Positions 11,821 to 27,880 of a stretch of 32,000 bases of DNA are shown here, piece after piece; the first letter of the stretch is position 1; each line of letters opens with the position of its first letter. A program made the translations under genes and the position numbers. The notes below the pieces were generated by a model. The model searched no databases. It saw only the letters and a program-made list of their open reading frames with translations, and was not told the DNA's origin. Source of the stretch: an uncultured Clostridia bacterium (GTDB lineage: Bacteria; Bacillota; Clostridia; TANB77; CAG-508). The stretch covers positions 30,208 to 62,207 of the forward strand of contig CALXEV010000005.1 of assembly GCA_944387425.1 (NCBI GenBank), given 5' to 3'.

Positions 11821-13191
11821 ATGTTTAAAATGCAAATTGACAAAGACGAACTTTTAAACCAAGCAAAAGAATTACTAAAAAACGAAGTAACACAAATTGC
11901 CTATGAAACTTGGCTAAGAACATTAGAGATAATGGAAATAAAAGGTAATCACATCGTCTTTAAAGCAGGATCAGAATATCATCATGACTTAATTAAAAGT
12001 CGATATGCGGATTTAATTCTTAATACTTTAAAATACTTAACAAATACAGAATGGACATTTTCAGTGTATTATGAAAAGGATAAGGATAAAAAAGAAGTTT
12101 CAGATGATACAATAATTTCAAACTCACAACCAGATATATCAGATGCTGAAATCGAAACTTCTAATAGAACACTTAATCCAAAATATACTTTTGACACATT
12201 TGTAGTAGGAAACAATAACAGATTTGCACATGCAGCAGCAATTGCAGTAGCAGATAAACCTGGTGAATCTTACAATCCATTATTTTTATATGGAGGAGTA
12301 GGATTAGGAAAAACTCACTTAATGCATGCAATTGGAAATAGAATCCTACAAAACAACAGATCTACAAAAATTTTATATGTAACATCTGAAAAGTTTACAA
12401 ATCAATTGATAAATGCCATCAAAGACAACAAGAATGAAATATTTAGAAATAAGTATAGAACAATTGATGTACTACTAATAGATGATATCCAATTTATAGC
12501 TGGAAAAGAGAGAGTGCAAGAAGAATTTTTCCATACTTTTAATGCTTTATACGAAGACAAAAAACAGATAATAATCTCAAGTGATAAGCCTCCAAGAGAC
12601 ATTCCATTTCTTGAAGATAGGTTAAAATCAAGATTTGAATGGGGTCTTTTAGCAGACATATCTTGTCCAGATTATGAAACACGTTTGGCAATTTTAAGAA
12701 AAAAAGCACAAGAAGAAAAAATTATTGTTGATGACAACATTTTAGCAAATATCGCAAACAAAATCGATTCTAATATTAGAGAATTAGAAGGTGTTTTTAA
12801 TAAAATCATTGCTAGAGCTTCACTTACACATAGTCCAATAACAATTGAACTTGCTGAAAATACAATAAATGAATTTAAAGCAGAAAGTGAAAAAGTTCTT
12901 TCATCAGATTTTGTTAAAGAAACAGTAGCAAAATACTTCAACATTGATAAAGATGATTTAGCAAGTAATAAGCGCTCAAATGAAATAGCATTTCCTAGAC
13001 AAATTGCAATGTATTTATGCAGAGAAGTTGCAAATATGTCTTATCCTAAGATAGGAGAGGACTTTGGGAACAGAGATCACTCAACAGTAATGCATGCATG
13101 CAAAAAAATTGAGAAAGAAGTTAAAGAAAAAACAAACACAAGATTAATTGTGGAAAGTGTGAAAAACATAATCATAAATGGTGAACAATAG
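11821..13191 (+). CDS. dnaA: Chromosomal replication initiator DnaA
   Basis: It has the AAA+ Walker A motif GGVGLGKTHLMHA and a C-terminal DnaA-box-binding domain (..DHSTVMHA..). The SD GAAAGGA abuts the first ATG, so 11830 (MQIDK...) is the more likely start. Confidence 0.95.
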   Translation: MFKMQIDKDELLNQAKELLKNEVTQIAYETWLRTLEIMEIKGNHIVFKAGSEYHHDLIKSRYADLILNTLKYLTNTEWTFSVYYEKDKDKKEVSDDTIISNSQPDISDAEIETSNRTLNPKYTFDTFVVGNNNRFAHAAAIAVADKPGESYNPLFLYGGVGLGKTHLMHAIGNRILQNNRSTKILYVTSEKFTNQLINAIKDNKNEIFRNKYRTIDVLLIDDIQFIAGKERVQEEFFHTFNALYEDKKQIIISSDKPPRDIPFLEDRLKSRFEWGLLADISCPDYETRLAILRKKAQEEKIIVDDNILANIANKIDSNIRELEGVFNKIIARASLTHSPITIELAENTINEFKAESEKVLSSDFVKETVAKYFNIDKDDLASNKRSNEIAFPRQIAMYLCREVANMSYPKIGEDFGNRDHSTVMHACKKIEKEVKEKTNTRLIVESVKNIIINGEQ

Positions 13192-13290
13192 AAAAGATAA
13201 TAGTTTAACTTTACTTTTTGAAAATTTGTTCTTATAGACAATTGTTCGGTTACAAAAAAGTTATCTTTACTTACGGAAAGGCTAGCTAGG

Positions 13291-13457
13291 TTGTCCACAC
13301 CCAACTGTTAATTTCTTGTTGATAAACTGTTTATAAGTACAATATCCACATTTTCAAAATTTTGCTGTGGACAAATTGGGAAGTTATCCACTAAGTTATA
13401 CACATAAATTTTTCTTAGGGGTTCAAAGTTTCCACATAGTTTTCCACATTATCCACA
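13291..13457. promoter_or_regulatory. oriC part 2: DnaA-box cluster between dnaA and dnaN
   Basis: Boxes are TTGTCCACA 13291-13299, ATATCCACA 13342-13350, TGTGGACAA 13366-13374, TTATCCACT 13384-13392, GTTTCCACA 13428-13436, TTTTCCACA 13440-13448 and TTATCCACA 13449-13457. Confidence 0.85.
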
Positions 13458-13512
13458 GCTACTAATACTATTACTACTAATAATATTTATTTTATATTTT
13501 AATATTAATAAA
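13458..13512 (+). promoter_or_regulatory. DnaA-trio-like TAN array plus AT-rich unwinding element
   Basis: A GC dinucleotide follows the last DnaA box. Next come nine consecutive TAN trinucleotides (TAC TAA TAC TAT TAC TAC TAA TAA TAT, 13460-13486), then pure A/T sequence up to the dnaN SD. Confidence 0.65.
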
Positions 13513-13525
13513 GGAGAGACGAAAA

Positions 13526-14641
13526 ATGAAAATTGTTTGTTATAAGGATAACATCCTTAAAGCTTTAAATTCCGTAGTAAAAGGTGTATCATCTAAAACA
13601 ACAATGCCTATACTAGAAGGAATACTTATACAAACTAATGATAATGAAATAAAATTAACAACATATGATTTAGAAATTGGAATTGAATATGTAATGGAAT
13701 GTGAAGTTAAAGAACAAGGAAGTATAGTTGTTAATGCAATAATGTTTAGTGAAATTATTAGAAAACTACCAGATACAGAAATTTATATATCACTAAACGA
13801 AAATAATTTATTAGAAATAGAATGTGAAGGTTCTTTATATAAATTAGCAACAATGAATCCTGAAGAATTTCCAGAATTACCTAAAATAGAAGTGGAAAAT
13901 TCAATAGAACTAGAACAAAATAAATTAAAAAATATGATTAGAAAAACAATATTTGCAGTTAGCTCTGAAGAAAACAGACCAATATTCACAGGTTGTTTAT
14001 TCGAAGTGGAAAACAATAAGCTAAATGTTGTTGCAGTAGACGGATTTAGATTAGCATTAAGAAGTATTTATCTACAAACAAAAGTAAATAATTTTAGGGC
14101 AGTAATACCAGGAAAAACACTTAATGAAGTAAATAAAATATTGTTAGATTCTTTTGATCCAATAAGAATAGGTATTTCAAAGAACCAAGCATTATTTGAA
14201 ATGGAAAATTGTAAAGTTGTTACACGTATATTAGATGGCGAGTTTTTAAATTATAAAACAGTTATTCCTTCAAGTTGGGAAACAAGAATAAAAGTAAATA
14301 AAAACAGTCTTCAAAACAGTTTTGAAAGAATAAGTTTAATTTCTTCTTCTTCAATAGAAAAGGAGAAAAAATATCCTGTAAAAGTATCTGTTGATATTGG
14401 AAAAGTTACAATTTCTTGTACAAACCAAACTGGAGATGCAAAAGAAGAAATCTTTGTATCTACAGAAGGGAAAAATATAGAAGCTGGATTTAATCCAAAA
14501 TATTTCTTAGATAGTTTAAAAGCAATAGATGATGAAGAAGTTTATGTGGAATTTGGAACAAACATATCCCCATGTTTAGTAAAACCTGTGGAAAACAATG
14601 AATATGTTTACATGATATTACCAATTAGATTAAAAGATTAA
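13526..14641 (+). CDS. dnaN: DNA polymerase III beta sliding clamp
   Basis: 371 aa in the position after dnaA, with the C-terminal ..YMILPIRL motif typical of beta clamps. SD is AAAGGAGAG. Confidence 0.9.
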   Translation: MKIVCYKDNILKALNSVVKGVSSKTTMPILEGILIQTNDNEIKLTTYDLEIGIEYVMECEVKEQGSIVVNAIMFSEIIRKLPDTEIYISLNENNLLEIECEGSLYKLATMNPEEFPELPKIEVENSIELEQNKLKNMIRKTIFAVSSEENRPIFTGCLFEVENNKLNVVAVDGFRLALRSIYLQTKVNNFRAVIPGKTLNEVNKILLDSFDPIRIGISKNQALFEMENCKVVTRILDGEFLNYKTVIPSSWETRIKVNKNSLQNSFERISLISSSSIEKEKKYPVKVSVDIGKVTISCTNQTGDAKEEIFVSTEGKNIEAGFNPKYFLDSLKAIDDEEVYVEFGTNISPCLVKPVENNEYVYMILPIRLKD

Positions 14642-14647
14642 AAATTT

Positions 14648-14674
14648 TGGTCAGAGGAGAGAAACTTCTGACCA
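14648..14674 (+). terminator. Terminator after dnaN
   Basis: 10-bp stem TGGTCAGAGG / CTTCTGACCA (one G-U pair) with loop AGAGAAA, followed by a T-rich tail. Confidence 0.6.
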
Positions 14675-14700
14675 TTATTTCTTAATAATAATAAATATGA

Positions 14701-14864
14701 AAAAAATAGCAAAAAAAAGAATAAAATAGAAAAAAAAAGATTGAGCGAGATTTTGAAAATTTTAAAATAAATAATTTAAGTATATAAAAAAGCAAAATGA
14801 AAAAGTAAGAAAAAAATAGAAAAAAAAAGAATAAAATAGTAAAAAAAAGATTGAGCGAGATTTT
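14701..14864 (+). repeat. 54-bp direct repeat (2 copies, 110 bp apart) in an A-rich spacer
   Basis: Copy 1 (14701-14754) and copy 2 (14811-14864) both read AAAAAATAG[C/A]AAAAAAAAGAATAAAATAG[A/T]AAAAAAAAGATTGAGCGAGATTTT and differ at 2 positions. A degenerate third core, GCACGAGAATCGAAAAT, lies at 15033-15049. Confidence 0.8.
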
Positions 14865-15144
14865 AAAATAAATTATAATTTATAAATAATATAGAAAATT
14901 AAAAATAAAAATAAATAAAATAAATTATATTTAATAAATTAGAAATAAATAAAAAAATAAAAAATAAATAACAAAAAATATAATAAATAATAAAAAAATA
15001 CAAAAATAATAAAAAATCATAAAAAAAACGACGCACGAGAATCGAAAATAAGCCATTTATTTTTTTGGGGTAATATAATTTTATGCCTCAAATAAAATAA
15101 AAAATTCTAAAAAAATCCTAAAAATAATAAAAAAATATACACAA

Positions 15145-16230
15145 ATGGAGAATAAAATGTGGATAAAAGAAATTAAATTAATGAATTTTAGAAATTATGA
15201 TGAACAAAAAATAAAATTACATGAAAATATTAATGTTTTTTTTGGTGAAAATGCACAAGGAAAAACAAATATAATTGAATCTATTTATTTAAGTAGTATA
15301 GGAAAATCTTTTAGAACAAATAAAGAAAAAGAATTAATTAAATTTAATAAAGAAAAAGCTTTTGTTGATATTTCTTATGAAAAAAGTGATAGAGATGGAA
15401 ATATAAAAATTGAAATAGGAGATAAAAAACAAGTATATTTAAATGGAATAAAAATAAAAAAATTAAGTGAACTTTTAGGTAATATTAATATAGTAATTTT
15501 TACTCCAGATGATATTAATATTTTAAAAGGCGGACCACAAAATAGAAGAAAATTTTTGGATGTCATGATAAGCCAATTAAGACCAAATTATATTCATGTA
15601 TTAACATTATATTTAAAAACACTAGAACAAAGAAACAATTATTTAAAACAAATAAAATTAGAAAATAAAAATGAAGAATTATTAGAAATATGGGATGAAA
15701 AATTAGCTGATTACGGAATAAAAATATATGAATATAGGAAAGAATTTATTGAAAAAATAATAAATAAAATAAAAATAATTCATAAAGAAATAACTCAAAA
15801 TAAAGAAGAAATAGAAATCAAATATTTTTCTGATTTAACTACTAGACAAAATTTTATAAATGAGTTAAAATCAAAAAGAAAGCTAGACATAATAAAAGGT
15901 TATACTACAAAAGGTGTACATAGAGATGATTTTGTAGTATATATAAATGGAAAACAAGTTGATATATATGGTTCGCAGGGACAACATAGAACTGCAGTTT
16001 TATCATTAAAGCTTGCGGAATTACAAGTTATATATGATGAAATAGGGGAGGAACCTATATTATTATTAGATGATTTTATGTCAGAATTAGATGAGAACAG
16101 AAGAAAAAACTTTTTTAATTATATAAAAAATATTCAAGTAATTGTTACATGTACTGAAAAAATAGTACTTGAAAATTTAAAATATTTTTCATATAATGTT
16201 ATAGATGGAAAGGTAATAGAAAAGGAATAA
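15145..16230 (+). CDS. recF: DNA replication and repair protein RecF
   Basis: It has the Walker A motif GENAQGKTN and the N-terminus (M)WIKEIKLMNFRNY. The SD GGAG lies inside the first codons, so ATG 15157 is the likely start. Confidence 0.9.
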   Translation: MENKMWIKEIKLMNFRNYDEQKIKLHENINVFFGENAQGKTNIIESIYLSSIGKSFRTNKEKELIKFNKEKAFVDISYEKSDRDGNIKIEIGDKKQVYLNGIKIKKLSELLGNINIVIFTPDDINILKGGPQNRRKFLDVMISQLRPNYIHVLTLYLKTLEQRNNYLKQIKLENKNEELLEIWDEKLADYGIKIYEYRKEFIEKIINKIKIIHKEITQNKEEIEIKYFSDLTTRQNFINELKSKRKLDIIKGYTTKGVHRDDFVVYINGKQVDIYGSQGQHRTAVLSLKLAELQVIYDEIGEEPILLLDDFMSELDENRRKNFFNYIKNIQVIVTCTEKIVLENLKYFSYNVIDGKVIEKE

Positions 16231-16240
16231 GCAACATTGA

Positions 16241-18184
<1,944 letters not shown>

Positions 18185-18193
18185 ATTAAATTA

Positions 18194-18223
18194 ATAGCTA
18201 GGAGAATAAAATCTCCTAGCTAT
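18194..18223 (+). terminator. Hairpin terminator after gyrB
   Basis: Perfect 11-bp stem ATAGCTAGGAG / CTCCTAGCTAT with loop AATAAAAT. The U-tract is weak. Confidence 0.55.
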
Positions 18224-18712
18224 TATCTATAAAGCTAATAAAAATCTTAACTCAGACTAATATATATAGTGGTCAAATCTAATGTATATTGCTATACAAA
18301 TAAACTATACACCACATATATTAATCAGTTGCTCGACTATTAATACATTAGTAGAAACCATATTCATCCACGTGGGACTAATAACAACCCCATATAATAT
18401 AAAAATAATCTTAGTTCAAATATATTACATATAATTTAACCATATATACATATAAAAATAATCCTTGAAAATTTAAATAAAATACAGCTTACATACACAT
18501 AATATATTTTTATCGCCGACATATATTAAGCCATAAAAATGACCCAATAAATATCTTTGTTCGAATATTAATAAACTAATAAAAATCCATTAATATTCTT
18601 AACTCAACTTGTATTAACCTTATACACATATTATGTACAAAACAAAAAATAATATTCAAAAAAATAAAAATTTTTTAAAAAGTTTATGTCGAAGAATGTC
18701 GAACGATTTTTC

Positions 18713-18741
18713 TTGACAAAAAAGAATAAGGATAGTAGAAT
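18713..18741 (+). promoter_or_regulatory. Sigma-A-type promoter of the island virB4-like operon
   Basis: TTGACA (18713-18718), a 17-nt spacer, then TAGAAT (18736-18741). The tandem direct repeats ATGTCGAA at 18686-18693 and 18696-18703 lie immediately upstream. Confidence 0.6.
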
Positions 18742-18762
18742 GTTTGTGAAAGGAGAGAGAAA

Positions 18763-19302
18763 ATTAAGTCTATACAAAAATGGTTACCAATAGAAGATAT
18801 TCTTGATAGAGGAATTATAAAAATAAGAAAAAATAAATATGTAAAAATATTAAAAATCGAACCAATCAATTTTAATTTAAAAACTCAATTAGAAAAAGAA
18901 TCAATTTTAAATTCTTATAAAATTTTTTTAAAAACATGTAATTTTGATATTCAAATTTTAATTCAAAGTAAAAAAGCCGATTTAAGTGGTCATATTAAAA
19001 ATCTAAAAAAAATTTCAGAAAAAGAAAATAATAAAATATTAAAAAATTATTTAGAAAAATATTTGGAATTTATTCAAGAAAAAAATAATAAAAATAAATC
19101 TGCCACAAAAAATACTTATTTAATAATAAAAAATAATATAGAAAATAATGAAGAAAATATAATACAAGATTTAAATGAAAAATATTTTAAAATTAAAGAA
19201 TGTTTATATAGATGTGGAAATAATGTTTTAGAATGTAATAAAGAAGAAACAAAAAATATATTATTTTCATTTTTAAATTTAAAAATATTTTTAGAAAAAT
19301 AA
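18763..19302 (+). CDS. VirB4-family N-terminal domain protein (separate ORF; apparent ATT start)
   Basis: The frame is open from 18739 to the TAA at 19300-19302, but the first ATG/GTG/TTG is TTG at 19063 (the ORF-track entry). ATT at 18763 lies 7 nt after GGAG (18752-18755). The translation ..KSIQKWLPIEDILDRGIIKIRKNKYVKILKIEPINFNLKTQLEKESILNSYKIFLKTCNFDIQILIQS.. matches the VirB4 N-terminal pattern. Confidence 0.55.
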   Translation: MKSIQKWLPIEDILDRGIIKIRKNKYVKILKIEPINFNLKTQLEKESILNSYKIFLKTCNFDIQILIQSKKADLSGHIKNLKKISEKENNKILKNYLEKYLEFIQEKNNKNKSATKNTYLIIKNNIENNEENIIQDLNEKYFKIKECLYRCGNNVLECNKEETKNILFSFLNLKIFLEK

Positions 19303-19316
19303 AAGGAGGAATATAA

Positions 19317-21080
19317 ATAGAAAATAAAATATATTTAAAAGAAGGAAATTTTAATTCAAAAGATTTTATATCACCAACATATATTAATTTAAATAATCCA
19401 AAATTTTTAGAAATAGATGATTATTTTTTTTCCGGAATAATTATTGTAAATTATTATAGAGAATACAATGAATTAATTTTAAAAAATTTAGTTGAAACAA
19501 ATATAAATATGAATATTTCAATTTTTTATGAAAAAGCTGATACAAATAAAATAATTAAAGAACTTACATATAATATTGGAAATGTAGGTGCAGAAATAAA
19601 AAGTTCTGGAGAAAATAAGCAAGATATTGATATTGCTACATTTGCATATAGTGACGCGAAATATATAAGAAAAGAAATTCAAGTTAATAATGAGGAGCTT
19701 TATTTTTTATATATTTATTTGGAATTATTTTCAAAAGAACAAAAAGAATTGCAATATAATTTAGACAAAGTAGAAGGGATTTTACAAAGCAAAGGTTTAC
19801 AAACTAAAAGAGCATATTTTAGGCAGGAACAATTATTTAAATCATGTTTACCTTTATTAGAAAATAGTGAAACTTTAAAAACCGTAGGAAAAAGAAACAT
19901 TTTAACAAATGGATTAATAAGCACATATCCATTTATTTCATCTTCAATATTTGAAGATAAAGGAATTTATATAGGAACAAATATGTATAATAATTCATTA
20001 ATTTTAATAGATAGATATAATACAAATAAATATAAAAATGCAAATATGTGTATTTTTGGAACGAGTGGAGCAGGAAAGTCTTTTTATACAAAATTATTAA
20101 TATTAAGAAATTCATTATTAGGAATTGAACAATATGTAATAGATCCAGAAAGAGAATATAATAAATTAGCAAAAAATATAGGAGGTACAATAATAAAATT
20201 AGGACCTACTTCAGAAAATTATATAAATATTTTTGATATTAGAAAAGAAAGTATTGAAGAAAATGAACATGGATATCTAGCAACAAAAATAGGAAAATTA
20301 ATTGGATTTTTTAATTTAATTTTTGGAGAATTAAATGAAGAAGAAAAAGCAATATTAGAAGAAAAAATAATTGAAGTATATAAAATAAAAAATATTAATT
20401 TTAATGATAAAACATTATATAAAAATAAAAAATTTAAAACAACAAAAGATATGCCAATATTAGAAGATTTTTATAATATATTAAATGATGAAAAAACGAA
20501 AAAATTTAAAATAAAACTATTGCCATTTATAAAAGGTTCTTTTAAATTTTTTAATAATTATACAAATATAGAATTAAATAAAAAATTAATAATTGCTGAT
20601 GTATATGAACTTGGAGAAGAAAATATGAAATATGGTATGTACTTATTTACAGAATTATTTTGGGACAAAATTAAAATAAATAGAAAAATAAAAAAAGCAA
20701 TCTATTTAGATGAAATTTGGAGATTAATAGGTGTCACGTCAAATAAAGATGTAGCAAAATTTATTTATAAAATATTTAAAACTATTAGAAAATATGGAGG
20801 AAGTAGTGTAGCAATAACACAAGATATATCAGATTTATTCAGTTTGGAAAATGGTACTTATGGAAAAAGTATTTTAAATAATTCAAGTATAAAAACATTT
20901 TTTTCATTAGAAGAAGAAAATATTAAATTATTATCTCAATATTCTAATTTATCAGAAAAAGAAAAAATAGAAATTAAATCATTAAGGAGGGGAGAATGTT
21001 TAACATTTGTTGGAGATGAACATATTTTAATAAAAATTGAAGCAAATGAATTTGAAAAACAATTAATAGATGGACAATAG
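19317..21080 (+). CDS. VirB4-family T4SS ATPase (central and C-terminal ATPase part; apparent ATA start)
   Basis: It has the Walker A motif FGTSGAGKSFYTKLL, the Walker B-like motif AIYLDEIWRL and AITQDISDL. The track ORF starts at ATG 19509, but the frame is open from 19317. ATA there lies 7 nt after GGAGG (19305-19309), and the 64 extra codons are stop-free in very AT-rich DNA. Confidence 0.7.
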   Translation: MENKIYLKEGNFNSKDFISPTYINLNNPKFLEIDDYFFSGIIIVNYYREYNELILKNLVETNINMNISIFYEKADTNKIIKELTYNIGNVGAEIKSSGENKQDIDIATFAYSDAKYIRKEIQVNNEELYFLYIYLELFSKEQKELQYNLDKVEGILQSKGLQTKRAYFRQEQLFKSCLPLLENSETLKTVGKRNILTNGLISTYPFISSSIFEDKGIYIGTNMYNNSLILIDRYNTNKYKNANMCIFGTSGAGKSFYTKLLILRNSLLGIEQYVIDPEREYNKLAKNIGGTIIKLGPTSENYINIFDIRKESIEENEHGYLATKIGKLIGFFNLIFGELNEEEKAILEEKIIEVYKIKNINFNDKTLYKNKKFKTTKDMPILEDFYNILNDEKTKKFKIKLLPFIKGSFKFFNNYTNIELNKKLIIADVYELGEENMKYGMYLFTELFWDKIKINRKIKKAIYLDEIWRLIGVTSNKDVAKFIYKIFKTIRKYGGSSVAITQDISDLFSLENGTYGKSILNNSSIKTFFSLEEENIKLLSQYSNLSEKEKIEIKSLRRGECLTFVGDEHILIKIEANEFEKQLIDGQ

Positions 21081-21489
21081 AAATAATAAAATAATTTTTT
21101 TATATAATTTAAAAGAATTATATAGTAGTGGAAAAAAGTATAAAAAAGTGGAATTAAATTTAAAAAATTATAAAAATATAAAAATACAAAAAAATAAAAA
21201 TTTATTAATAGTAAATAAAATAAAAAATAATTTATTAATTTTAAAAAAATATTTTAAATTAAGTGATGAAATTATTTTTATTATAGAACCTAATTTTTAT
21301 TCAGTAAAAAAATATTATTTTGTAATTAATAAAATAATAAAATATAATATTAATCCTAAAAAAATAAAAATAATAATAAGAAATAAAAATGAAAAAATTT
21401 ATTATTTAATAATTAAATGTTTTTTTAAAAAATTAAAAATAGAAAAAATAGAAAGGGGTAAATATGGAATTAGAAAACGAAATAAATAA
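21070..21489 (+). CDS. Hypothetical, extremely K/N/I-rich basic protein
   Basis: 139 stop-free codons in roughly A/T-only DNA. The ATG overlaps the virB4-like stop (ATGGACAATAG). No SD is recognisable and I recognise no family. Confidence 0.4.
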   Translation: MDNRNNKIIFLYNLKELYSSGKKYKKVELNLKNYKNIKIQKNKNLLIVNKIKNNLLILKKYFKLSDEIIFIIEPNFYSVKKYYFVINKIIKYNINPKKIKIIIRNKNEKIYYLIIKCFFKKLKIEKIERGKYGIRKRNK

Positions 21490-22168
21490 TGATTTAAAAA
21501 TTGAAGAAAAACAAAATAATTTTTTTGACACAATGTTCGGAAAAGTTGTGGATAATGGAATAGATATTGGATTAAGAGCAATATTACCAGATTTGATTGA
21601 AGAGCAGGTTATAGATATTAAAAATGCACTTTTGAAAAATGGTATTTCAGAAGGAATTCAAACAGCCGTAAAATCTGTTTCAGATTTTGCAAAAAGTGCA
21701 TTAGGTATAGTAACAGGAAAATTTGAAAATATGGAACAAATTGAGATAGCCGTGGGTGATGGTGGACTTGTTGACACAATTTCATCAGCACTAGATAATG
21801 CTACAGACAAGATATATGAAAAAGGATATATAAACCGTACTATAAACAATATAATAAAAAGTGGAAAAGATATTCTATTAGAAAATGTTACACAAAAAAT
21901 AAAAGAAGAAATTGACGAACAAAATAATAGTATAGAAAGCTTAGAAAAATACATGGACAATTGGAAAGAATATTATAATAATAAAAATTTTGAAGGTATG
22001 GAAAAGGAAATAGAAAAAATACAAGAAAAACTAGAAGATATTATACCATTAGAAAATATTATAAAAGAAGCAAGAAATATTGAAACACTTCATGAATTAA
22101 TAAAAAATAAAGGACAAAATTTTGAAATTACACAAACAGAAAGAGAGTTAATAAATAAACTCTCTTAA
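21464..22168 (+). CDS. Hypothetical soluble protein with a coiled-coil C-terminus
   Basis: 234 aa with an AAAGGGG SD, no TM segment and a C-terminal heptad-like EK-rich region. I recognise no family. Confidence 0.55.
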   Translation: MELENEINNDLKIEEKQNNFFDTMFGKVVDNGIDIGLRAILPDLIEEQVIDIKNALLKNGISEGIQTAVKSVSDFAKSALGIVTGKFENMEQIEIAVGDGGLVDTISSALDNATDKIYEKGYINRTINNIIKSGKDILLENVTQKIKEEIDEQNNSIESLEKYMDNWKEYYNNKNFEGMEKEIEKIQEKLEDIIPLENIIKEARNIETLHELIKNKGQNFEITQTERELINKLS

Positions 22169-22515
22169 GATTTGCTATCATTTAATTTTTTACAGAAATC
22201 ATTAGAACATAAAACTATATGATAAATAAAATCTGATGTAGTTTCAGAATTTAATTCTAAAATATTATTAATTTTATTTAAAACATCATTTTTTGAATTT
22301 TTGCCAAAAAGTAAATAATCAGCTGAAACGCCAGTGTATTTTACAACTTTTTTTAAAGTTTTTACACTAAGAGAACGTTCGCCTCTTTCTATTTGGCCCA
22401 AAAATGAATCTGTAATATCTATTTTTTCAGAAAATTCTTCTCTTGTCATATTCATATTTTCTCTTATCTCACGTAATCTTTCTCCAATATTAATATCATC
22501 TTGATTAAGCTGCAT
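22165..22515 (-). CDS. XRE-family helix-turn-helix transcriptional regulator
   Basis: 116 aa with the N-terminal HTH_3 pattern IGERLREIRENMNMTREEFSEKIDITDSFLGQIERGERSLSVKTLKKV. Confidence 0.85.
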   Translation of the reverse strand: MQLNQDDINIGERLREIRENMNMTREEFSEKIDITDSFLGQIERGERSLSVKTLKKVVKYTGVSADYLLFGKNSKNDVLNKINNILELNSETTSDFIYHIVLCSNDFCKKLNDSKS

Positions 22516-22568
22516 TTCATCACCTCAAAATTTTTTTACATTATATAGCAAAAAATGTCAACACATAA

Positions 22569-22594
22569 TATGCAAAAAGCACATTTTTTGCATA
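22569..22594. promoter_or_regulatory. Candidate operator (10-bp perfect inverted repeat) in the XRE / small-ORF divergent intergenic region
   Basis: TATGCAAAAA (22569-22578), a 6-nt spacer, then TTTTTGCATA (22585-22594). Confidence 0.45.
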
Positions 22595-22665
22595 CTCAAC
22601 AAAAAGGTACAATAAATGCATAAAAAAAGTCGAACTGGAAAAAATATCAAGTAAAGGAGGAAAAA

Positions 22666-22863
22666 ATGTTAAGTGATGAAATGCTAAACAAAATATTTAA
22701 TGAAAACTTTGAAAAAATAGAAGAAAATATTCAAGGTGAATATCATCAAAAGATAAAAGAGATAAAAAATGAAGAAGAAAAAGAAAATATAAAATTATCA
22801 ATAATAAGTGAATTATACTATAAACAAGGTTTTAAAGATGGTTTTGAATATGCAAATAAGTAA
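22666..22863 (+). CDS. Small hypothetical protein (65 aa), divergent from the XRE gene
   Basis: It has a strong SD (AAAGGAGG) 7 nt before the ATG. The protein is charged and helical with a C-terminal YYKQGFKDGFEYA. I recognise no family. Confidence 0.55.
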   Translation: MLSDEMLNKIFNENFEKIEENIQGEYHQKIKEIKNEEEKENIKLSIISELYYKQGFKDGFEYANK

Positions 22864-22894: not shown

Positions 22895-22923
22895 TTGCAA
22901 AATAAGGCGTAGTATAATATAAT
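22895..22923 (+). promoter_or_regulatory. Dedicated gyrA promoter
   Basis: TTGCAA (22895-22900), a 17-nt spacer, then TATAAT (22918-22923). An overlapping second TATAAT lies 5 nt upstream. Confidence 0.6.
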
Positions 22924-22958: not shown

Positions 22959-25412
22959 ATGGAAGAAAGACAAGATGGAAATATAATCAAAAGAGATATT
23001 GAGCAAGAGATGAGAACAGCCTATATTGATTATGCCATGAGTGTTATTGTATCTAGGGCTTTACCAGATGTAAGAGATGGTTTAAAGCCTGTACATAGAA
23101 GAATTTTATATGCTATGTATGAAGATGGAATTACTTCAGACAAACCATATAGGAAATGTGCCAACACAGTAGGTTCTGTACTAGGAAGATACCATCCACA
23201 TGGTGATAGTTCCGTATATGATGCAATGGTAAGAATGGCACAAGACTTTTCAATGAGATATATGTTAATAGATGGGCATGGAAATTTTGGTTCTATAGAT
23301 GGTGATGGAGCTGCTGCTATGAGGTACACAGAAGCAAGAATGTCAAAAATAGCTGAGCAAATGCTTGTAGATATAGAGAAAAACACAGTAGATTTTATGC
23401 CAAACTATGATGAAAGATTACAAGAACCAACAGTATTACCTGCAAAAATACCAGCATTATTAATAAATGGTTCATCAGGTATTGCCGTAGGAATGGCAAC
23501 AAATATACCACCTCATAATTTAACAGAAGTTATAGATGGAATTATAAAAATAATAGATGATGACAATGTAACAGATGACGAATTAATGCAAATTATAAAA
23601 GGTCCAGATTTTCCTACAGAAGGTATAATTCTTGGAATTGAAGGAATAAAAGAAGCATATAAAACAGGTAAAGGAAAAATCACATTAAGAGCAGAAACAG
23701 AAATTGAAGAAATGAGCGGAAATAAACAAAGAATAATTGTTTCTTCTTTACCATACCAAGTAAATAAAGCAAAATTAATTGAAAACATAGCTAAATTATG
23801 TAGGGAAAAAAGAATTGAAGGCATCTCAGAAATGAGAGATGAATCAGATAGAAAAGATAGAGTTAGAATAGTAATAGAATTAAAAAGAGATGCTAATCCT
23901 CAAGTAGTTTTAAATCAATTATATAAAAACACACAAATGCAAGATACTTTTGGTATTATAATGCTTGCATTAGTAGATGGAGAACCAAAAATACTAACAT
24001 TAAGACAATGCTTAGATTTATATCTAGATCATAGAAAAACAGTAATTTTACGTAGAACACAATTCGATTTAGATAAAGCATTAGCAAGAGCACATATATT
24101 AGAAGGATTAAAAATAGCATTAGATAATATAGATGAAGTAATTGAAATAATCCGTAATTCATATGATGATGCTAAAGAAAGATTAATGGAAAGATTTGGT
24201 CTTACAGATATTCAAGCACAAGCAATACTAGACATGAGATTAAAAACATTATCTGGATTGCAACGTGAAAAAATAGAAGAAGAATATCAACAATTAATGG
24301 CATTAATAGAACATTTAAGAGCTATTTTAGCAAGTGAAAAATTAGTTTTTGATATAATTAAAGAAGAACTTATTGAAATAAGAGACAAATTTGGAGATGA
24401 AAGAAAAACTAAAATTGTTGCTGCAGAAGGCGAAATAGATGTTGAAGATTTAATAAAAGAAGAGCAAGCAGTTATAGCCCTAACTCATTTTGGTTACATA
24501 AAAAGAATGCCAATAGATACATATAAGAGTCAAAAACGTGGAGGAAAGGGAATAACAGGAATTGCAACTAGAGAAGAAGATTTCGTAAAACAAATATTTA
24601 CAGCTTCTACACATGATACAATCTTATTCTTCACAAATAAAGGAAAATTATATAGATTAAGAGGATATGAAGTACCAGAAGCAGGTAGAACAGCAAAAGG
24701 AACTGCAATAGTTAATCTATTAAGTTTAGATGCTGGTGAAAAAGTATCAGCCGTAATACCAATTCAAAATTTTGCTGAAGGAAAATATCTATTAATGGCA
24801 ACTAAAAAAGGATTAATAAAGAAAACAGCATTATTAGAATATAATTCAGCAAGAAAAACAGGTCTTCAAGGAATCACATTAAAAGAAGATGACGAATTAA
24901 TCGGAGTAAGATTAACAGATGGTCAAGATGATGTAGTTCTTGTAACAAAAAACGGAATGTGTATAACATTTGACGAAAAAGAAGTACGCCCAATAGGAAG
25001 AGTTTCACAAGGTGTTATAGGAATTAGATTAGATGAAGATGATGAAGTAATTGGAATGGAATCTATAATTTCTGGAGGAAAGGCAACATTACTTGCAATT
25101 ACAGAAAACGGTTTCGGAAAGAGAACTGAATTAGATGAATATAGAGTTCAACTAAGAGGTGGAAAAGGTGTTATAACATATAAAATAACACAAAAAACAG
25201 GAAAACTTGTTGGAGTAAGAATTGCAACAGATGATGAGGATGTAATGCTTATAACTGATAAAGGAACAATTATAAGATTAAAAGTTAAGGATATAAGTGT
25301 TCTAGGTCGTTCTACACAAGGTGTTACTCTAATGAGAACAACAGATGGAGGAAAAGTAGTAAGTATTGAAACAATTACTTCAGAAATGATGAACGAAGAT
25401 GAAAAAGAATAA
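22959..25412 (+). CDS. gyrA: DNA gyrase subunit A
   Basis: 817 aa with the active-site region [11 protein letters not shown], a QRDR-like [10 protein letters not shown] motif and C-terminal beta-pinwheel repeats. Confidence 0.95.
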
Positions 25413-25416
25413 AAAT

Positions 25417-25450
25417 AATCGCTAGAAAAAATCTAGCGATTTTTATTTTT
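25417..25450. terminator. Bidirectional terminator between the convergent gyrA and dnaI-like genes
   Basis: Stem AATCGCTAGA / TCTAGCGATT with loop AAAA. T-runs follow downstream on both strands. Confidence 0.75.
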
Positions 25451-26456
25451 GTTTCAATTTAAATCTCAAATCATCACCAAAAAAGTAATAAATATCATAA
25501 AAACCAACAATACGAGAACCAATTCGTTCCTCATAATTCTTAAAAATATTATTAATATCCAAATTAGTAGAAATAATTGTTTTTGTAGCTTTATTATTCA
25601 AATTAAGTAGTCTAGTATTAAGAATAGTGAAAAGCTCACTCAATTTCATACTATTTAAACACTCTGTTCCAAGATCATCAATAATTAGTAAATCAGCTTC
25701 AAGAACATTCTTATAAAAATCATCTTGACGAGAATTTTTATATTTACTCATTTTATTATCAATAACAGTTTCAAGAAGAACAGGAGCTGTTTGGTATAAA
25801 ACATTTTTTCCTTTTTTAATTAATTCACTAGCTATACAATTAGTCATAAAAGTTTTACCTAAGCCTGTATTTCCCGTAAAAAGTAAATTATGAGAATCAA
25901 GATTATCAAAGTTATTAATAAAATCAATGCATTTTTCTTTAATAAGTAAAATATTAGCTCTTGGAGAAATTTTCATCTTATATTTATCAAAATTTACTTC
26001 GTCAGAGTAAATTAATGGATTAAAAGTATCGAAATTTTCTTGAGCCAAGTTAGAAATATTAGCCTTATTATATGATATATCTAATAACTTTTGTTTAATA
26101 CAAGAACATAGGGTGGAAGCACTTCCAGAGTTATTTATATATCCGGTATCTTTACAAATTTTACATTCATAATATGGCTCTAAATAACTTTCTGGAATGT
26201 TATTATCCTTAAGAATTTGTGCTTTTTCTTTTTTTAGAGTATTCAACTTTTCTGTTAAATCAGATAAAGAGCTATTATTTCCGTTTAAAATATTTTTTGC
26301 AGTATTAATAGCATACGAATTTAAAGTATCTTCAATTTCTTGCAAACGAGGAATTTTTTTGAATAATTCTTGTTTTCGTTCTTCTAAATCTAATTCTGCT
26401 TTACGCTTTTTTTGGTCATATTCTAATAAAAGTTCTGATAAAATTTCACTAGCCAT
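25443..26456 (-). CDS. DnaC/DnaI-family helicase-loader ATPase
   Basis: 337 aa with the Walker A motif FTGNTGLGKTF, the Walker B motif LLIIDDLGTE and an N-terminal Cys cluster (CKICKDTGY...CSC). Its start overlaps the stop of the DnaD-domain gene. Confidence 0.8.
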   Translation of the reverse strand: MASEILSELLLEYDQKKRKAELDLEERKQELFKKIPRLQEIEDTLNSYAINTAKNILNGNNSSLSDLTEKLNTLKKEKAQILKDNNIPESYLEPYYECKICKDTGYINNSGSASTLCSCIKQKLLDISYNKANISNLAQENFDTFNPLIYSDEVNFDKYKMKISPRANILLIKEKCIDFINNFDNLDSHNLLFTGNTGLGKTFMTNCIASELIKKGKNVLYQTAPVLLETVIDNKMSKYKNSRQDDFYKNVLEADLLIIDDLGTECLNSMKLSELFTILNTRLLNLNNKATKTIISTNLDINNIFKNYEERIGSRIVGFYDIYYFFGDDLRFKLKQK

Positions 26457-27510
26457 TAATATCTCCTTCTATATTTGAAATTGAGGAAGCTGCAATATTA
26501 GGTGAATTATTTACGGAATTAGTATATTGTGTGTTTTGAGGAATATTTTCACCAGCATTTGCATACAAGAAAGCTAAATTATCATATTGTCTTTGTTCAA
26601 AAGAAGCTTTTGCTACTTGTTTTTCTATTTTTTTAGTATCTTTCTTTAGTTTTGTTCTTTGTTCAATAAATGCAAGAATTTCATTTGGGGTTTTTAAACC
26701 TCTGTCATGCCAATCAGTAATTATATTATTAAAATATTCAAATGTAGGGTTATTCTTAAAAGTAGTTCTTTTTAAAGCAATTTCAATGATATTTAAATCA
26801 TATCCAAAATCAATAACCCATTTTTCAATATAAGCTTCTTCATATTGAGTAAGAGTTTGTTTGCCTAATTTTTTTGCAATAGTCTTTTTAATTTTAACAA
26901 GTTTTTCTTGTTTTTGATAATATAAATCTAAATCATTCCAAGTTCGTATTTTATTGTTTCCCCAAGCTTCTGCAACAGTTTGTATATATTTCTTATGTAA
27001 TGCAGAACGATTAAAACAATAATCAAATAAAGCAATCATTACTTCTTCATCAAAATTATATTTTGTGAACCATAAATCTATATCATTATACCAAGAAGGT
27101 CCCATAATTCCTTGGAAATAAGTATTATTAATATGATTGATAACTTTTGCACGAGCTTTATTTTTTGCTATATCTGCAACTTTTTCTGGAGAAGCGGTTA
27201 AGTTTGGTTTATATAATTTATTAAGTGTTATTTCTTGTAAATTAGAAACAATATATCCATTTTCTTTTTTTATAATTAACTCATTTGTATCTAAATAAGA
27301 AATAGCATCATTAACTTCTTTTAAAGGCAATGCTAATTTTTTTGATAAATCATTTAATTTGATTTCTTTTCTATATTTAGATAAAAAAAGCATATATAGA
27401 TAAACTTTAACACAATTTCCTGGCATTTGAGATAGATATTCTGCAAAAAATATGTCAGGAACAATAGTTTCAGAGAATAACAAAGGTTGTTCTGGTTGTT
27501 CGAATTTCAT
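26449..27510 (-). CDS. DnaD-domain replication initiation protein (Firmicute DnaB/DnaD-like)
   Basis: It has two DnaD-like repeats (..IQTVAEAWGNNKIRTWNDL.. and ..FNNIITDWHDRGLKTPNEI..). GGAGG (27522-27518) favours ATG 27510 over the track start at 27528. Confidence 0.75.
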   Translation of the reverse strand: MKFEQPEQPLLFSETIVPDIFFAEYLSQMPGNCVKVYLYMLFLSKYRKEIKLNDLSKKLALPLKEVNDAISYLDTNELIIKKENGYIVSNLQEITLNKLYKPNLTASPEKVADIAKNKARAKVINHINNTYFQGIMGPSWYNDIDLWFTKYNFDEEVMIALFDYCFNRSALHKKYIQTVAEAWGNNKIRTWNDLDLYYQKQEKLVKIKKTIAKKLGKQTLTQYEEAYIEKWVIDFGYDLNIIEIALKRTTFKNNPTFEYFNNIITDWHDRGLKTPNEILAFIEQRTKLKKDTKKIEKQVAKASFEQRQYDNLAFLYANAGENIPQNTQYTNSVNNSPNIAASSISNIEGDING

Positions 27511-27536
27511 TTTTAAGCCTCCAATCATTTGGACAA

Positions 27537-27584: not shown

Positions 27585-27869
27585 TTAATATTTTTTATAT
27601 AAATATAATTTTGGTCTAACCAAATAATTTATAAAATATTTAAATACATATATTAAAGGTTCTCCATTAAAACCTATTATACTAAGAAGTGTAACAGGAA
27701 AACAAAGAGAAATCAATAAAAATATTTTTATATTCCAATCATGTATAAATAGATTAAGAATTAAATAAATACACACATACCAAATAACATTAAAAATAGC
27801 TGTTGAATAATCTATTACACCAAAAAGCTTACTTTTAAAATTATAATTTTGTGGAAAAATAAATTTCAT
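27585..27869 (-). CDS. TcpE/VirB3-like small T4SS membrane protein
   Basis: 94 aa. The N-terminus FPQNYNFKSKLFGVIDY is followed by two TM helices. It is the last gene of the T4SS-like operon. Confidence 0.5.
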   Translation of the reverse strand: MKFIFPQNYNFKSKLFGVIDYSTAIFNVIWYVCIYLILNLFIHDWNIKIFLLISLCFPVTLLSIIGFNGEPLIYVFKYFINYLVRPKLYLYKKY

Positions 27870-27880
27870 GAATCACCATC

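Follow-up and report, generated by a model that had tools for sequence, protein, structure and literature searches.

A putative type IV secretion gene cassette and a candidate structured RNA gene between gyrB and gyrA in uncultured gut Clostridia

Introduction

Patescibacteria carry a chromosomal type IV secretion system (T4SS) that includes TrsD, VirB4, VirB3, VirB6 and VirB2-like proteins and usually lacks a relaxase. Its genes often adjoin dnaA, dnaN, rnpA and rpmH, and in one species the system is essential for growth on the host cell (PMC12102498, where TrsD is also described). Here, we analyse a comparable set of genes in an uncultured Clostridia bacterium. They lie in a stretch of 32,000 nucleotides (assembly GCA_944387425.1, contig CALXEV010000005.1, positions 30,208 to 62,207), hereafter referred to as the window, which is the replication-origin region of a bacterium with approximately 26% G+C. 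Between gyrB and gyrA, the window contains a cassette of T4SS-type genes, and between gyrB and this cassette a stretch that appears to encode a structured RNA. An initial annotation, made from the sequence alone, had read positions 18226-22863 as an AT-rich insertion, or the remnant of one, at a very unusual site and under the control of its own XRE-family repressor. Its coordinates and gene inventory were reproduced on re-checking, including a VirB4 homologue in two open reading frames (ORFs), two unknown ORFs, a convergent XRE gene and a small ORF. The observation was thus accurate, whereas the proposal of an insertion is for the most part mistaken.

The relaxase-less, origin-proximal T4SS of Patescibacteria is the closest described analogue of this locus. 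Both combine a TrsD-like protein and VirB4 with VirB3/PrgI-like, VirB6-like and VirB2-like pilin proteins, with no relaxase nearby, and both show an origin-proximal location, hosts with reduced genomes and vertical conservation. Unlike in Patescibacteria, the host here belongs to the Clostridia, and the genes form two blocks interspersed with gyrB, gyrA and dnaD/dnaC. The coupling protein is tightly linked here, whereas only a minority of coupling protein genes in Patescibacteria are found near virB4. This comparison concerns gene set and neighbourhood and leaves descent aside; every named relative of the nearest outgroup VirB4 carries the label Clostridia bacterium.

Two further types of system can be compared with the window. 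The plasmids pGO1, pSK41 and pIP501 (TrsD plus TrsE; MPF-FATA subclass) likewise have a split VirB4, with an N-domain of about 180-200 amino acids and an ATPase of about 600-650 amino acids. However, the N-domain protein of the window scores 27.2 bits (E 3e-6) with the TrsD/TraD model NF041427, whose cut-off is 200, and is not a curated member of that family; its resemblance to TrsD is remote, although it may work like TrsD. The VirB4 proteins found in a plasmid collection are all distant, at most 28-32% identical, and the window set comes without a relaxase, a hydrolase or the backbone of a plasmid or an integrative and conjugative element. Elements of the CD1110 family, represented here by the metagenomic locus L085, provide the best NCBIfam model. 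Genes that L085 and the window have in common are those for the VirB3-like protein, VirB4, the pilin, the coupling protein, XRE and the receiver-plus-CbiA protein. L085 differs in having a fused VirB4 of 849 amino acids (42-44% identical), a relaxase, MobC and an M23 hydrolase, whereas the window genes are a fixed part of the chromosome, where housekeeping genes separate them. A pilus cluster described for TANB77 (PMC11680825) was considered as this system and ruled out, as it is a Tad-type locus (CpaF, TadB/C). The literature yielded nothing relevant on VirB4 between gyrB and gyrA, and no VirB4 relatives were found in viral contigs.

A secretion gene cassette shared by a clade of gut Clostridia

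From the sequences compared here, we consider it probable that the interval between gyrB (16256-18184, plus strand) and gyrA (22959-25412, plus strand) is the central block of an ancient, vertically inherited and chromosome-fixed T4SS of the MPF-FATA-like, Gram-positive conjugation type. The host clade consists of uncultured gut Clostridia with low G+C content and small genomes. The block would encode a split VirB4 consisting of an N-domain protein and an ATPase, a degenerating CpaE/ParA-like ATPase and a helical protein, orf234.

Relatives were collected by a GyrB scan with one genome per species, which gave 80 loci (designated L followed by a number). The clade set consists of the 20 species loci in which GyrB is at least 78% identical and a contig spans the gyrB-gyrA interval. 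In all 20, homologues of the TrsD-like, VirB4 and orf234 genes lie between gyrB and gyrA, with order and strand unchanged. The cassette of the clade encodes a protein of approximately 190 amino acids, a VirB4 ATPase of approximately 600, usually a protein of 310-430 amino acids, and the orf234 homologue. The same cassette occurs in contigs of Clostridium sp. CAG:356, one of which is 1.66 Mb long, and in L176 and L177. We observed no presence/absence polymorphism: every fetched relative with a contig spanning the interval has the cassette. Within the clade the VirB4 ATPase is 65-89% identical, which makes it as conserved as DnaA and more conserved than RecF. One clade member, L011, is labelled Candidatus Scatovivens, a genus that has been placed in order TANB77, family CAG-508 (PMC13106387); Clostridium sp. 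CAG:356 also belongs to the clade. Through this one named relative, L011, the window itself would fall in TANB77 as well.

The association extends to sister lineages in which VirB4 is 46-49% identical and the G+C content ranges from 24% to 39%, as these keep the cassette directly upstream of gyrA. L087 and L088 (24% G+C, GyrB 67% identical) show the order dnaA-dnaN-recF-gyrB, two genes, TrsD, VirB4 and, after an intervening stretch, the orf234 homologue and gyrA. In L089 (30% G+C) and L175 (39% G+C), the TrsD-like and VirB4 genes are followed by a ParA-like gene, a T2SSE ATPase gene, two more genes and gyrA. As lineages this distant retain it, the association of the cassette with gyrA long predates the clade. 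The same gene content at the same place in all 20 species-level relatives, in further metagenome contigs and, upstream of gyrA, in these sister lineages contradicts the insertion, or remnant of one, that the initial annotation had proposed. Neither is the site exceptional in this group, since other Clostridia have unrelated genes at this place or have the two genes unlinked. In more distant Clostridia, 1 to 4.5 kb of unrelated sequence separates gyrB from gyrA, and in L035, L036 and L046 gyrB is followed by infC, rplT and efp, with no gyrA nearby.

The sister lineages also differ among themselves. A T2SSE-type ATPase (VirB11/CpaF-like) is encoded at L089:13124-14419, L175:12089-13375 and L084:8146-9795, and in the sister lineages with higher G+C content this gene and one or two further genes separate the ParA-like gene from gyrA. 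T4SS and Tad-like modules may have been united in the ancestral cassette. The regions after gyrA in L088 (16547-21640) and L087 (16503-21791) differ despite an identical VirB4 protein and an identical gene order up to gyrA. One of the two carries the coupling protein operon; in the other, an integrase, a SocA_Panacea protein and a methyltransferase are encoded there, as if a mobile element had inserted beside gyrA.

The first two cassette genes account for VirB4. The upstream gene (18763-19302, plus strand; about 179 amino acids, in a frame open from 18739) encodes the TrsD-like N-domain protein, which matches positions 2-168 of the 752 positions of the NCBIfam model conju_CD1110 (E 1.7e-9, 36.5 bits) and has homologues in the TraC-like protein of L084 and in the N-terminal part of the fused L085 VirB4. 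The downstream gene (19317-21080, plus strand; 587 amino acids) matches positions 183-732 of the same model (E 6e-87, 292.6 bits against a cut-off of 325), so that the simple sum of the two scores is 329 bits. It also matches the Pfam families P-loop_TraG (E 3e-18, 66 bits against a cut-off of 25.8) and AAA_10, and its C-terminal domain matches the solved VirB4 structure PDB 4AG5 (E 2e-44). Among 15 clade genomes, no variation was seen in Walker B (LDE) or in an ITQD motif downstream of it, and Walker A (GTSGAGKS in the window) is kept as GTSGxGKS in the clade genomes, with A/S changes only. By its homologous C-terminal P-loop domain with Walker A and B motifs, the downstream gene is identified as a VirB4/TraC-type T4SS ATPase.

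The N-terminal VirB4 domain is not part of the ATPase polypeptide and is encoded by a separate upstream gene in all 20 genomes examined. In the window, fusion by a frameshift is impossible because the stop codons at 19300-19302 and 19314-19316 close the N-domain and ATPase frames, respectively. These stops and the separate ORFs of the 20 genomes rule out both frameshift and readthrough fusion. The nearest VirB4 relatives (45-51% identity) are mostly proteins of about 600 amino acids, with one fused exception of 849 amino acids (P0125), whereas ordinary conjugative VirB4 proteins (30-36% identity) are mostly fused and 800-1000 amino acids long. Judged by these comparisons, the two-ORF VirB4 is a conserved, natural two-protein form and not a pseudogene.

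Two further genes follow VirB4 in the window. The first, orf139 (21070-21489, plus strand), has a G+C content of 9.5%. When compared with a profile of 385 positions made from 15 relatives, it aligns with positions 231-353 (E 1e-9; compositional bias is high). In most relatives the gene is intact, with a receiver-like N-terminus and a ParA/MinD ATPase domain, and the intact copies match CbiA, ParA and AAA_31. This alignment identifies orf139 as the decaying C-terminal third of a CpaE/TadZ-like protein with receiver and ParA/MinD ATPase domains. The second, orf234 (21464-22168, plus strand), encodes a conserved helical protein of 234 amino acids and is always the last cassette gene before gyrA. 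A homologue is present in all 20 genomes examined, and those of L087 and L175 are 36% and 29% identical, respectively. None of its 1601 homologues has a Pfam domain or an informative name, and an AlphaFold2 model made from 21 sequences is all-helical and unreliable (predicted local distance difference test score of 45).

Further components beyond gyrA

The initial annotation noted that the interval carries only part of a secretion machine. This is true of the interval alone, whereas other parts lie approximately 5 kb to the right, on the minus strand at 27585-30786. There, a second block would provide a coupling protein, a pilin, a VirB6-like and a VirB3-like protein, embedded in a string of dnaD-like and dnaC-like genes. 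The coupling protein (VirD4/TraG-like; 29098-30786, minus strand; 562 amino acids) has a Walker A motif GTIGTGKTS and a Walker B motif ICDE, and matches the Pfam families TrwB_AAD_bind (E 2e-9) and TraG-D_C (E 1.5e-7). It is 41% identical to the coupling protein of the mobile element L085, 72% to that of L081 and 44% to that of L087, and has no sequence match in PDB. The putative VirB2/TrbC-like pilin (28762-29079, minus strand; 105 amino acids) has a signal peptide and hydrophobic segments. Its matches to the Pfam families T4SS_pilin and TrbC are weak (both E 6e-4, below cut-off), and it is homologous to the T4SS_pilin gene of L085.

The two remaining components were assigned by more indirect means. 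A polytopic membrane protein of 290 amino acids (27881-28753, minus strand) is considered VirB6-like from its size, topology and position; it has no family match, and a homologue is found in the L084 cluster (E 1.5e-18). A protein of 94 amino acids with two predicted helices (27585-27869, minus strand) is considered VirB3/PrgI-like from its position, and its homologues lie immediately upstream of VirB4 in L084 and L085. The 290-amino-acid protein adjoins dnaD in L016, L021, L033 and L081 and is also kept in L087, and the 94-amino-acid protein is conserved in L007, L016, L021, L033, L034 and L081. All four T4SS proteins are conserved in the CAG:356 contigs, and the two membrane proteins are found beside dnaD in five more distant clade members. 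In the window, the four T4SS genes run into the dnaD-like (DnaB_2) and dnaC-like (PRK06835) replication genes (25443-27528, minus strand), with the 94-amino-acid gene 56 nt from that string. This linkage recurs on the opposite strand in L087, where gyrA is followed by all four genes (coupling protein, pilin, VirB6-like and VirB3-like) and dnaD.

Metagenomic loci show these genes in other arrangements. L084 has homologues of the 290- and 94-amino-acid proteins, the N-domain protein, VirB4 and the ParA-like protein in one uninterrupted string, and in L085 a relaxase, MobC and an M23 hydrolase are encoded next to homologues of the 94-amino-acid protein, VirB4, the pilin and the coupling protein. 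These homologues reveal that the window genes descend from a Gram-positive-type conjugation system whose genes are now split around gyrA, which bears out the secretion-machine identity given by the initial annotation. In the assembled system, the two ATPases would energise a membrane channel in which the pilin is combined with the VirB3-like and VirB6-like proteins.

A second, separate T4SS cluster occupies positions 1-2323 of the window on the minus strand, beside parB and two tRNA-Ser genes, and continues in L091 (8646-20348). It contains three VirB2/TrbC-type pilin genes (1919-2323, 1500-1904 and 1077-1433), a PrgI/VirB3 gene (621-968) and a further VirB4 N-domain gene, which is cut off by the left end of the window. 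Contigs of the same species add a VirB4 ATPase of 655 amino acids (again split), proteins of 1065 and 318 amino acids and an M23 peptidase. The VirB4 of this cluster is only 25-27% identical to the copy between gyrB and gyrA. The second cluster is conserved in 26 metagenome loci, and its pilins evolve fast.

Maintenance by selection and alternative explanations

Selection was assessed from pairwise ratios of nonsynonymous to synonymous substitution rates (dN/dS) between the window and L081. VirB4 had a ratio of 0.12, compared with 0.105 for gyrB, 0.094 for dnaA and 0.20 for recF. The ratio was 0.19 for the coupling protein and for both membrane proteins (290 and 94 amino acids), 0.08 for the pilin, 0.17 for the XRE gene and 0.38 for orf234. 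With the VirB4 ratio near that of gyrB and the ATPase motifs conserved across the clade, these genes appear to be maintained by selection.

A number of observations weigh against a conserved and functional T4SS. The VirB6-like, VirB3-like and pilin assignments draw on weak or positional evidence, this gene set has no VirB8-like or cell-wall hydrolase (VirB1-like) gene, and a relaxase could be encoded elsewhere in the genome. At the beginning of the conserved protein sequence, both VirB4 genes of the window lack an ATG, GTG or TTG. In the N-domain gene, the first such codon is codon 108, and the residues upstream of it are nevertheless conserved; in the ATPase gene, the first ATG is 64 codons into the conserved sequence. 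VirB4 is frameshifted, in two to five frames, in the metagenome-assembled genomes (MAGs) L012, L019, L022, L026, L029, L031 and L034. Finally, the CpaE-like gene of the window is decaying; its counterparts in L002 and L028 no longer have a P-loop, L013 and L081 lack the gene altogether, and the clade is without the T2SSE ATPase of the sister lineages. This decay and this absence suggest that parts of the ancestral system are being lost.

Some of these points can be accounted for. An ATT at 18763 lies 7 nt after GGAG and an ATA at 19317 lies 7 nt after AAGGAGG, and the equivalent start in relatives is ATG in several and ATA or ATT in others. The N-domain gene therefore probably starts at ATT and the ATPase gene at ATA, as far as initiation can be read from these sites. 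The equivalent genes of L013, L019, L029, L031 and L034 show apparent ATT or ATA starts 7-8 nt after strong ribosome-binding sites. Because the apparent starts are ATT and ATA, both VirB4 genes are shortened or overlooked by ordinary gene callers; in the public protein set, the VirB4 of the window is a protein of 523 amino acids that begins at an internal ATG. The breaks in VirB4 are likely assembly errors, because housekeeping genes are also broken in some of the same MAGs (recF, gyrB or gyrA in L022, L031 and L034). True VirB4 pseudogenes may still exist in some species.

The system might still transfer DNA, for example by mobilising the chromosome from near the origin, with a relaxase and an origin of transfer (oriT) that lie elsewhere or were not recognised. 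Coupling proteins typically recruit DNA substrates, and the one found here is retained with intact Walker motifs. The nearest mobile relative is conjugative and has a relaxase and MobC, and the second T4SS cluster, with its pilins and M23 hydrolase, lies nearby. However, no relaxase domain was found among the scanned ORFs of the window or the genes on the 10 kb to its left in L091 (approximately 42 kb inspected), and strict vertical synteny over a long time is unlike a self-transmissible element. The analogous systems of Patescibacteria also lack relaxases (PMC12102498). Active DNA transfer is thus an unlikely explanation.

The cassette could also be a functionless relic, that is, an ancient trapped element in slow decay whose conservation reflects nothing but slow loss. 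Such a relic could explain why orf139 is a remnant of a larger gene that is degenerate or lost in several relatives, why the T2SSE ATPase was lost and why some MAGs have frameshifted VirB4 copies, and the extremely low G+C content and the lack of canonical start codons in the window would fit as well. It is difficult to reconcile with a dN/dS of 0.12 for VirB4 and 0.08-0.19 for the other machine proteins, with Walker motifs conserved across the clade, and with sequence upstream of the first ATG that is conserved as protein behind strong ribosome-binding sites. Moreover, small genomes (the CAG:356 contig is about 1.66 Mb) lose useless DNA. We therefore consider a relic improbable, and favour a chromosome-fixed T4SS that is maintained by selection while some of its ancestral parts are being lost.

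A candidate structured RNA gene convergent with gyrB

The approximately 480 bp between gyrB and the cassette, which had been described as non-coding, appear to encode a structured RNA on the minus strand. The RNA gene (18186-18626, minus strand) is approximately 440 nt long, with its core at 18229-18623. The predicted fold consists of a closing helix and five long AU-rich arms, and the junction strands between them repeat a motif near UYGARYWAAGA. For the window sequence, the minimum free energy is -130.4 kcal/mol (z = -9.4). The RNAalifold consensus has 138 pairs at -118.8 kcal/mol on the minus strand, against 32 pairs at -15.2 kcal/mol on the plus strand. In a minus-strand alignment of 23 sequences, 97.7% of pair cells are standard, compared with 36-45% when the partners are slid by 1-3 columns. 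Compensatory changes on both sides occur in 75 of the 128 pairs, and none of 500 shuffles reaches the observed values. This covariation support is as strong as that for established RNA families. The region is 65-87% identical in nucleotide sequence in more than 25 species, in which synonymous sites are highly diverged, and its alignment consists of conserved blocks interrupted by hairpin insertions of variable length.

The RNA gene appears to have its own promoter and to share a terminator with gyrB. A promoter-like site on the minus strand (18630-18659; TTGAAT, 18 nt, CATAAT) has a nearly invariant -10 element (TATTATG on the plus strand), and its -35 element is conserved in most of 22 sequences. 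From this site, transcription would start at approximately 18623-18626, where the closing helix begins. The hairpin with which gyrB ends, already reported by the initial annotation, is a 14-pair stem at 18192-18225. It is shared by gyrB on the plus strand and the RNA gene on the minus strand, and it covaries in a 22-sequence alignment (for example AU/CG/UA/GC at one position). It is probably a terminator in both directions.

We searched 2.65 Mb of fetched sequence with an nhmmer sequence profile of the RNA. The profile located the RNA in 33 related loci, each time directly 3' of gyrB and convergent with it, and at no other place in this sequence. Some clade members that retain the cassette (L013, L025, L028, L033 and L072) lack the RNA, as do the sister lineages. 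In L024 and L018, the RNA stays beside gyrB although other genes, a two-component system in L024 and probably also in L018, are inserted before the cassette. As it remains with gyrB when genes are inserted before the cassette, the RNA is a separate gene and not a leader of the cassette; it would be transcribed from the opposite strand, from its own promoter.

Comparison with described RNAs gave no match. Rfam 15 gave none at E <=1 in this region of the window and, with eight orthologous loci and E <=5, only chance matches on the terminator hairpin. RNase P RNA, transfer-messenger RNA (tmRNA), signal recognition particle (SRP) RNA and 6S RNA were ruled out, as none of them matched in Rfam and ARAGORN found no tmRNA. 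A GGAAAGUCC-type motif, which we take to be that of RNase P, was not seen at the expected place. A coding role of 18226-18700 was rejected, as this stretch contains only short, unsupported ORFs. The RNA motif was not found in viral contigs, and the literature held nothing relevant on large RNAs in gut Clostridia. OLE, GOLLD, ROOL and raiA are RNAs of several hundred nucleotides with many covarying helices and a restricted phylogenetic range, and the RNA of the window is alike in these respects. It differs from them in having no sequence or structure match to any of them, another architecture and a position always convergent with gyrB. The alignments strongly support a conserved, highly structured RNA in the 480-bp stretch, one that matches no described family.

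The element at 18.2-18.6 kb could in principle act as DNA and not as RNA, be it as an oriT-like or protein-binding region or as a structure in single-stranded DNA. It adjoins T4SS genes, origins of transfer are presumably structured, and Watson-Crick covariation alone cannot separate DNA from RNA. However, many invariant G-U pairs occur on the minus strand only and become A-C mismatches on the opposite strand, in line with the excess of pairs on the minus strand. The first helix is immediately preceded by conserved -35 and -10 elements, and the last is immediately followed by a conserved hairpin. The element also stays with gyrB when the cassette is displaced and is lost from five loci that retain the cassette. 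A function as DNA is therefore highly improbable, and we favour an RNA transcribed towards gyrB.

Base composition, regulatory sites and neighbouring genes

The interval is more AT-rich than its surroundings, as the initial annotation had observed, with a G+C fraction of 0.199 against 0.271 for the remaining window. The contrast with the gyrase genes is real but inflated, as gyrB (0.307) and gyrA (0.306) are the most G+C-rich genes here. The TrsD-like gene (0.141), VirB4 (0.198) and orf139 (0.095) can be compared with recF (0.205). In five relatives, as in the window, recF and VirB4 are equally AT-rich, and the G+C-rich outliers are gyrB and gyrA (0.30-0.33). The G+C fraction at third codon positions (GC3) is 0.04-0.13 in the genes of the interval, against 0.08-0.22 elsewhere (gyrB 0.079, recF 0.083). 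Thus, the composition differs from the mean of the window, but GC3 resembles that of the neighbours. The AT-richness is located in codon positions 1 and 2, in proteins rich in Lys, Asn and Ile, and not in position 3. The low G+C content is the result of weak amino-acid constraint under strong AT mutation pressure and not of foreign origin. Long residence under AT-biased mutation fits these data, as the deviation is found at codon positions 1 and 2 and GC3 overlaps with that of the neighbours.

No integrase or recombinase domain was found among the ORFs of the interval in Pfam and NCBIfam scans, nor an integrase domain among the scanned window ORFs or the genes on the 10 kb to the left in L091. 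The direct repeats sought around 18.2 kb and 22.9 kb yielded only AT-rich chance matches, and all repeat families were low-complexity and AT-rich.

The cassette and gyrA each have a promoter-like site, both in agreement with the initial annotation. The cassette site (18713-18741, plus strand; TTGACA, 17 nt, TAGAAT) is the best match of the region with 11 of 12 consensus positions, and its TTGACA is conserved at the equivalent place in many relatives. The gyrA site (22895-22923, plus strand; TTGCAA, 17 nt, TATAAT) matches 10 of 12. As the total of promoter-like matches equals the shuffled expectation (49 vs 47.5), these sites are to be read as consensus matches only. Directly upstream of the -35 element of the cassette are two direct repeats of ATGTCGAA, 10 nt apart (18686-18703, plus strand), and the ATGTCGAA element also precedes TTGACA in L001, L008 and L017. 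These repeats may be the binding site of a regulator. In L024, a pair of response regulator and histidine kinase genes is inserted at the position of the ATGTCGAA repeats, and matching spacing makes the same insertion probable in L018 (approximately 12600-15450 in both loci). The insertion at this site hints at two-component control of the cassette.

The XRE-family repressor gene (22165-22515, minus strand; HTH_3 E 9e-16, 58 bits against a cut-off of 23) is found only in the window, L002 and the CAG:356 contigs L081-L083. As it is confined to one sub-lineage, it is not the ancestral regulator of the cassette, and the regulation that the initial annotation assigned to it does not apply to the other clade members. 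The gene is a later addition in that sub-lineage and lies outside the conserved cassette. A palindrome, ATGCAAAAA-N6-TTTTTGCAT (22570-22593), between the XRE gene and orf65 may be the XRE operator. The small ORF orf65 (22666-22863, plus strand) has a ribosome-binding site, no Pfam or NCBIfam match and no tblastn match in any locus, the closest relatives included.

That the interval is a recent, horizontally acquired island or its remnant, under its own XRE repressor, is hardly credible. In favour of such an island are the conjugative ancestry of its genes, a G+C content below that of the flanks, separate promoter-like and terminator sites for the cassette and gyrB, respectively, and the XRE genes that accompany the related mobile element L085. 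Against it, the cassette occupies the same place in every relative examined, even at 46-49% VirB4 identity, GC3 is not deviant and recF is equally AT-rich, no integrase or flanking repeats were found, XRE is confined to a sub-lineage and selection on VirB4 is as strong as on gyrB.

The rest of the window can be described briefly. On the left, rnpA, yidC, jag, mnmE, mnmG, rsmG, parA and parB lie on the minus strand, and dnaA (11821-13191) is followed by dnaN and recF. Near the right end, genes for tRNA-Lys, tRNA-Glu and tRNA-Thr (31410-31682) precede a c-di-GMP-I riboswitch (31809-31895, plus strand; 82 bits), whose regulated gene lies beyond the window.

Implications

We tentatively propose, as one possible reading of both features together, that the ~440-nt RNA represents a new class of large structured RNAs, with a six-strand UYGARYWAAGA junction and confined to TANB77-like gut Clostridia, and that this clade keeps a Patescibacteria-like, conjugation-derived secretion system, with no relaxase nearby, around its replication origin. 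TANB77/CAG-508 bacteria, none of which has ever been cultured, are prevalent in the guts of humans and animals, and a link between them and the response to cancer immunotherapy has been described (PMC11680825). If our proposal is true, dependence on other cells or DNA exchange could explain why the clade has never been cultured. A conserved, origin-proximal and conjugation-derived system with no relaxase nearby would offer a concrete clue to the ways in which these bacteria take up DNA or interact with other cells, and would extend the pattern seen in Patescibacteria to the Firmicutes, its probable donors.

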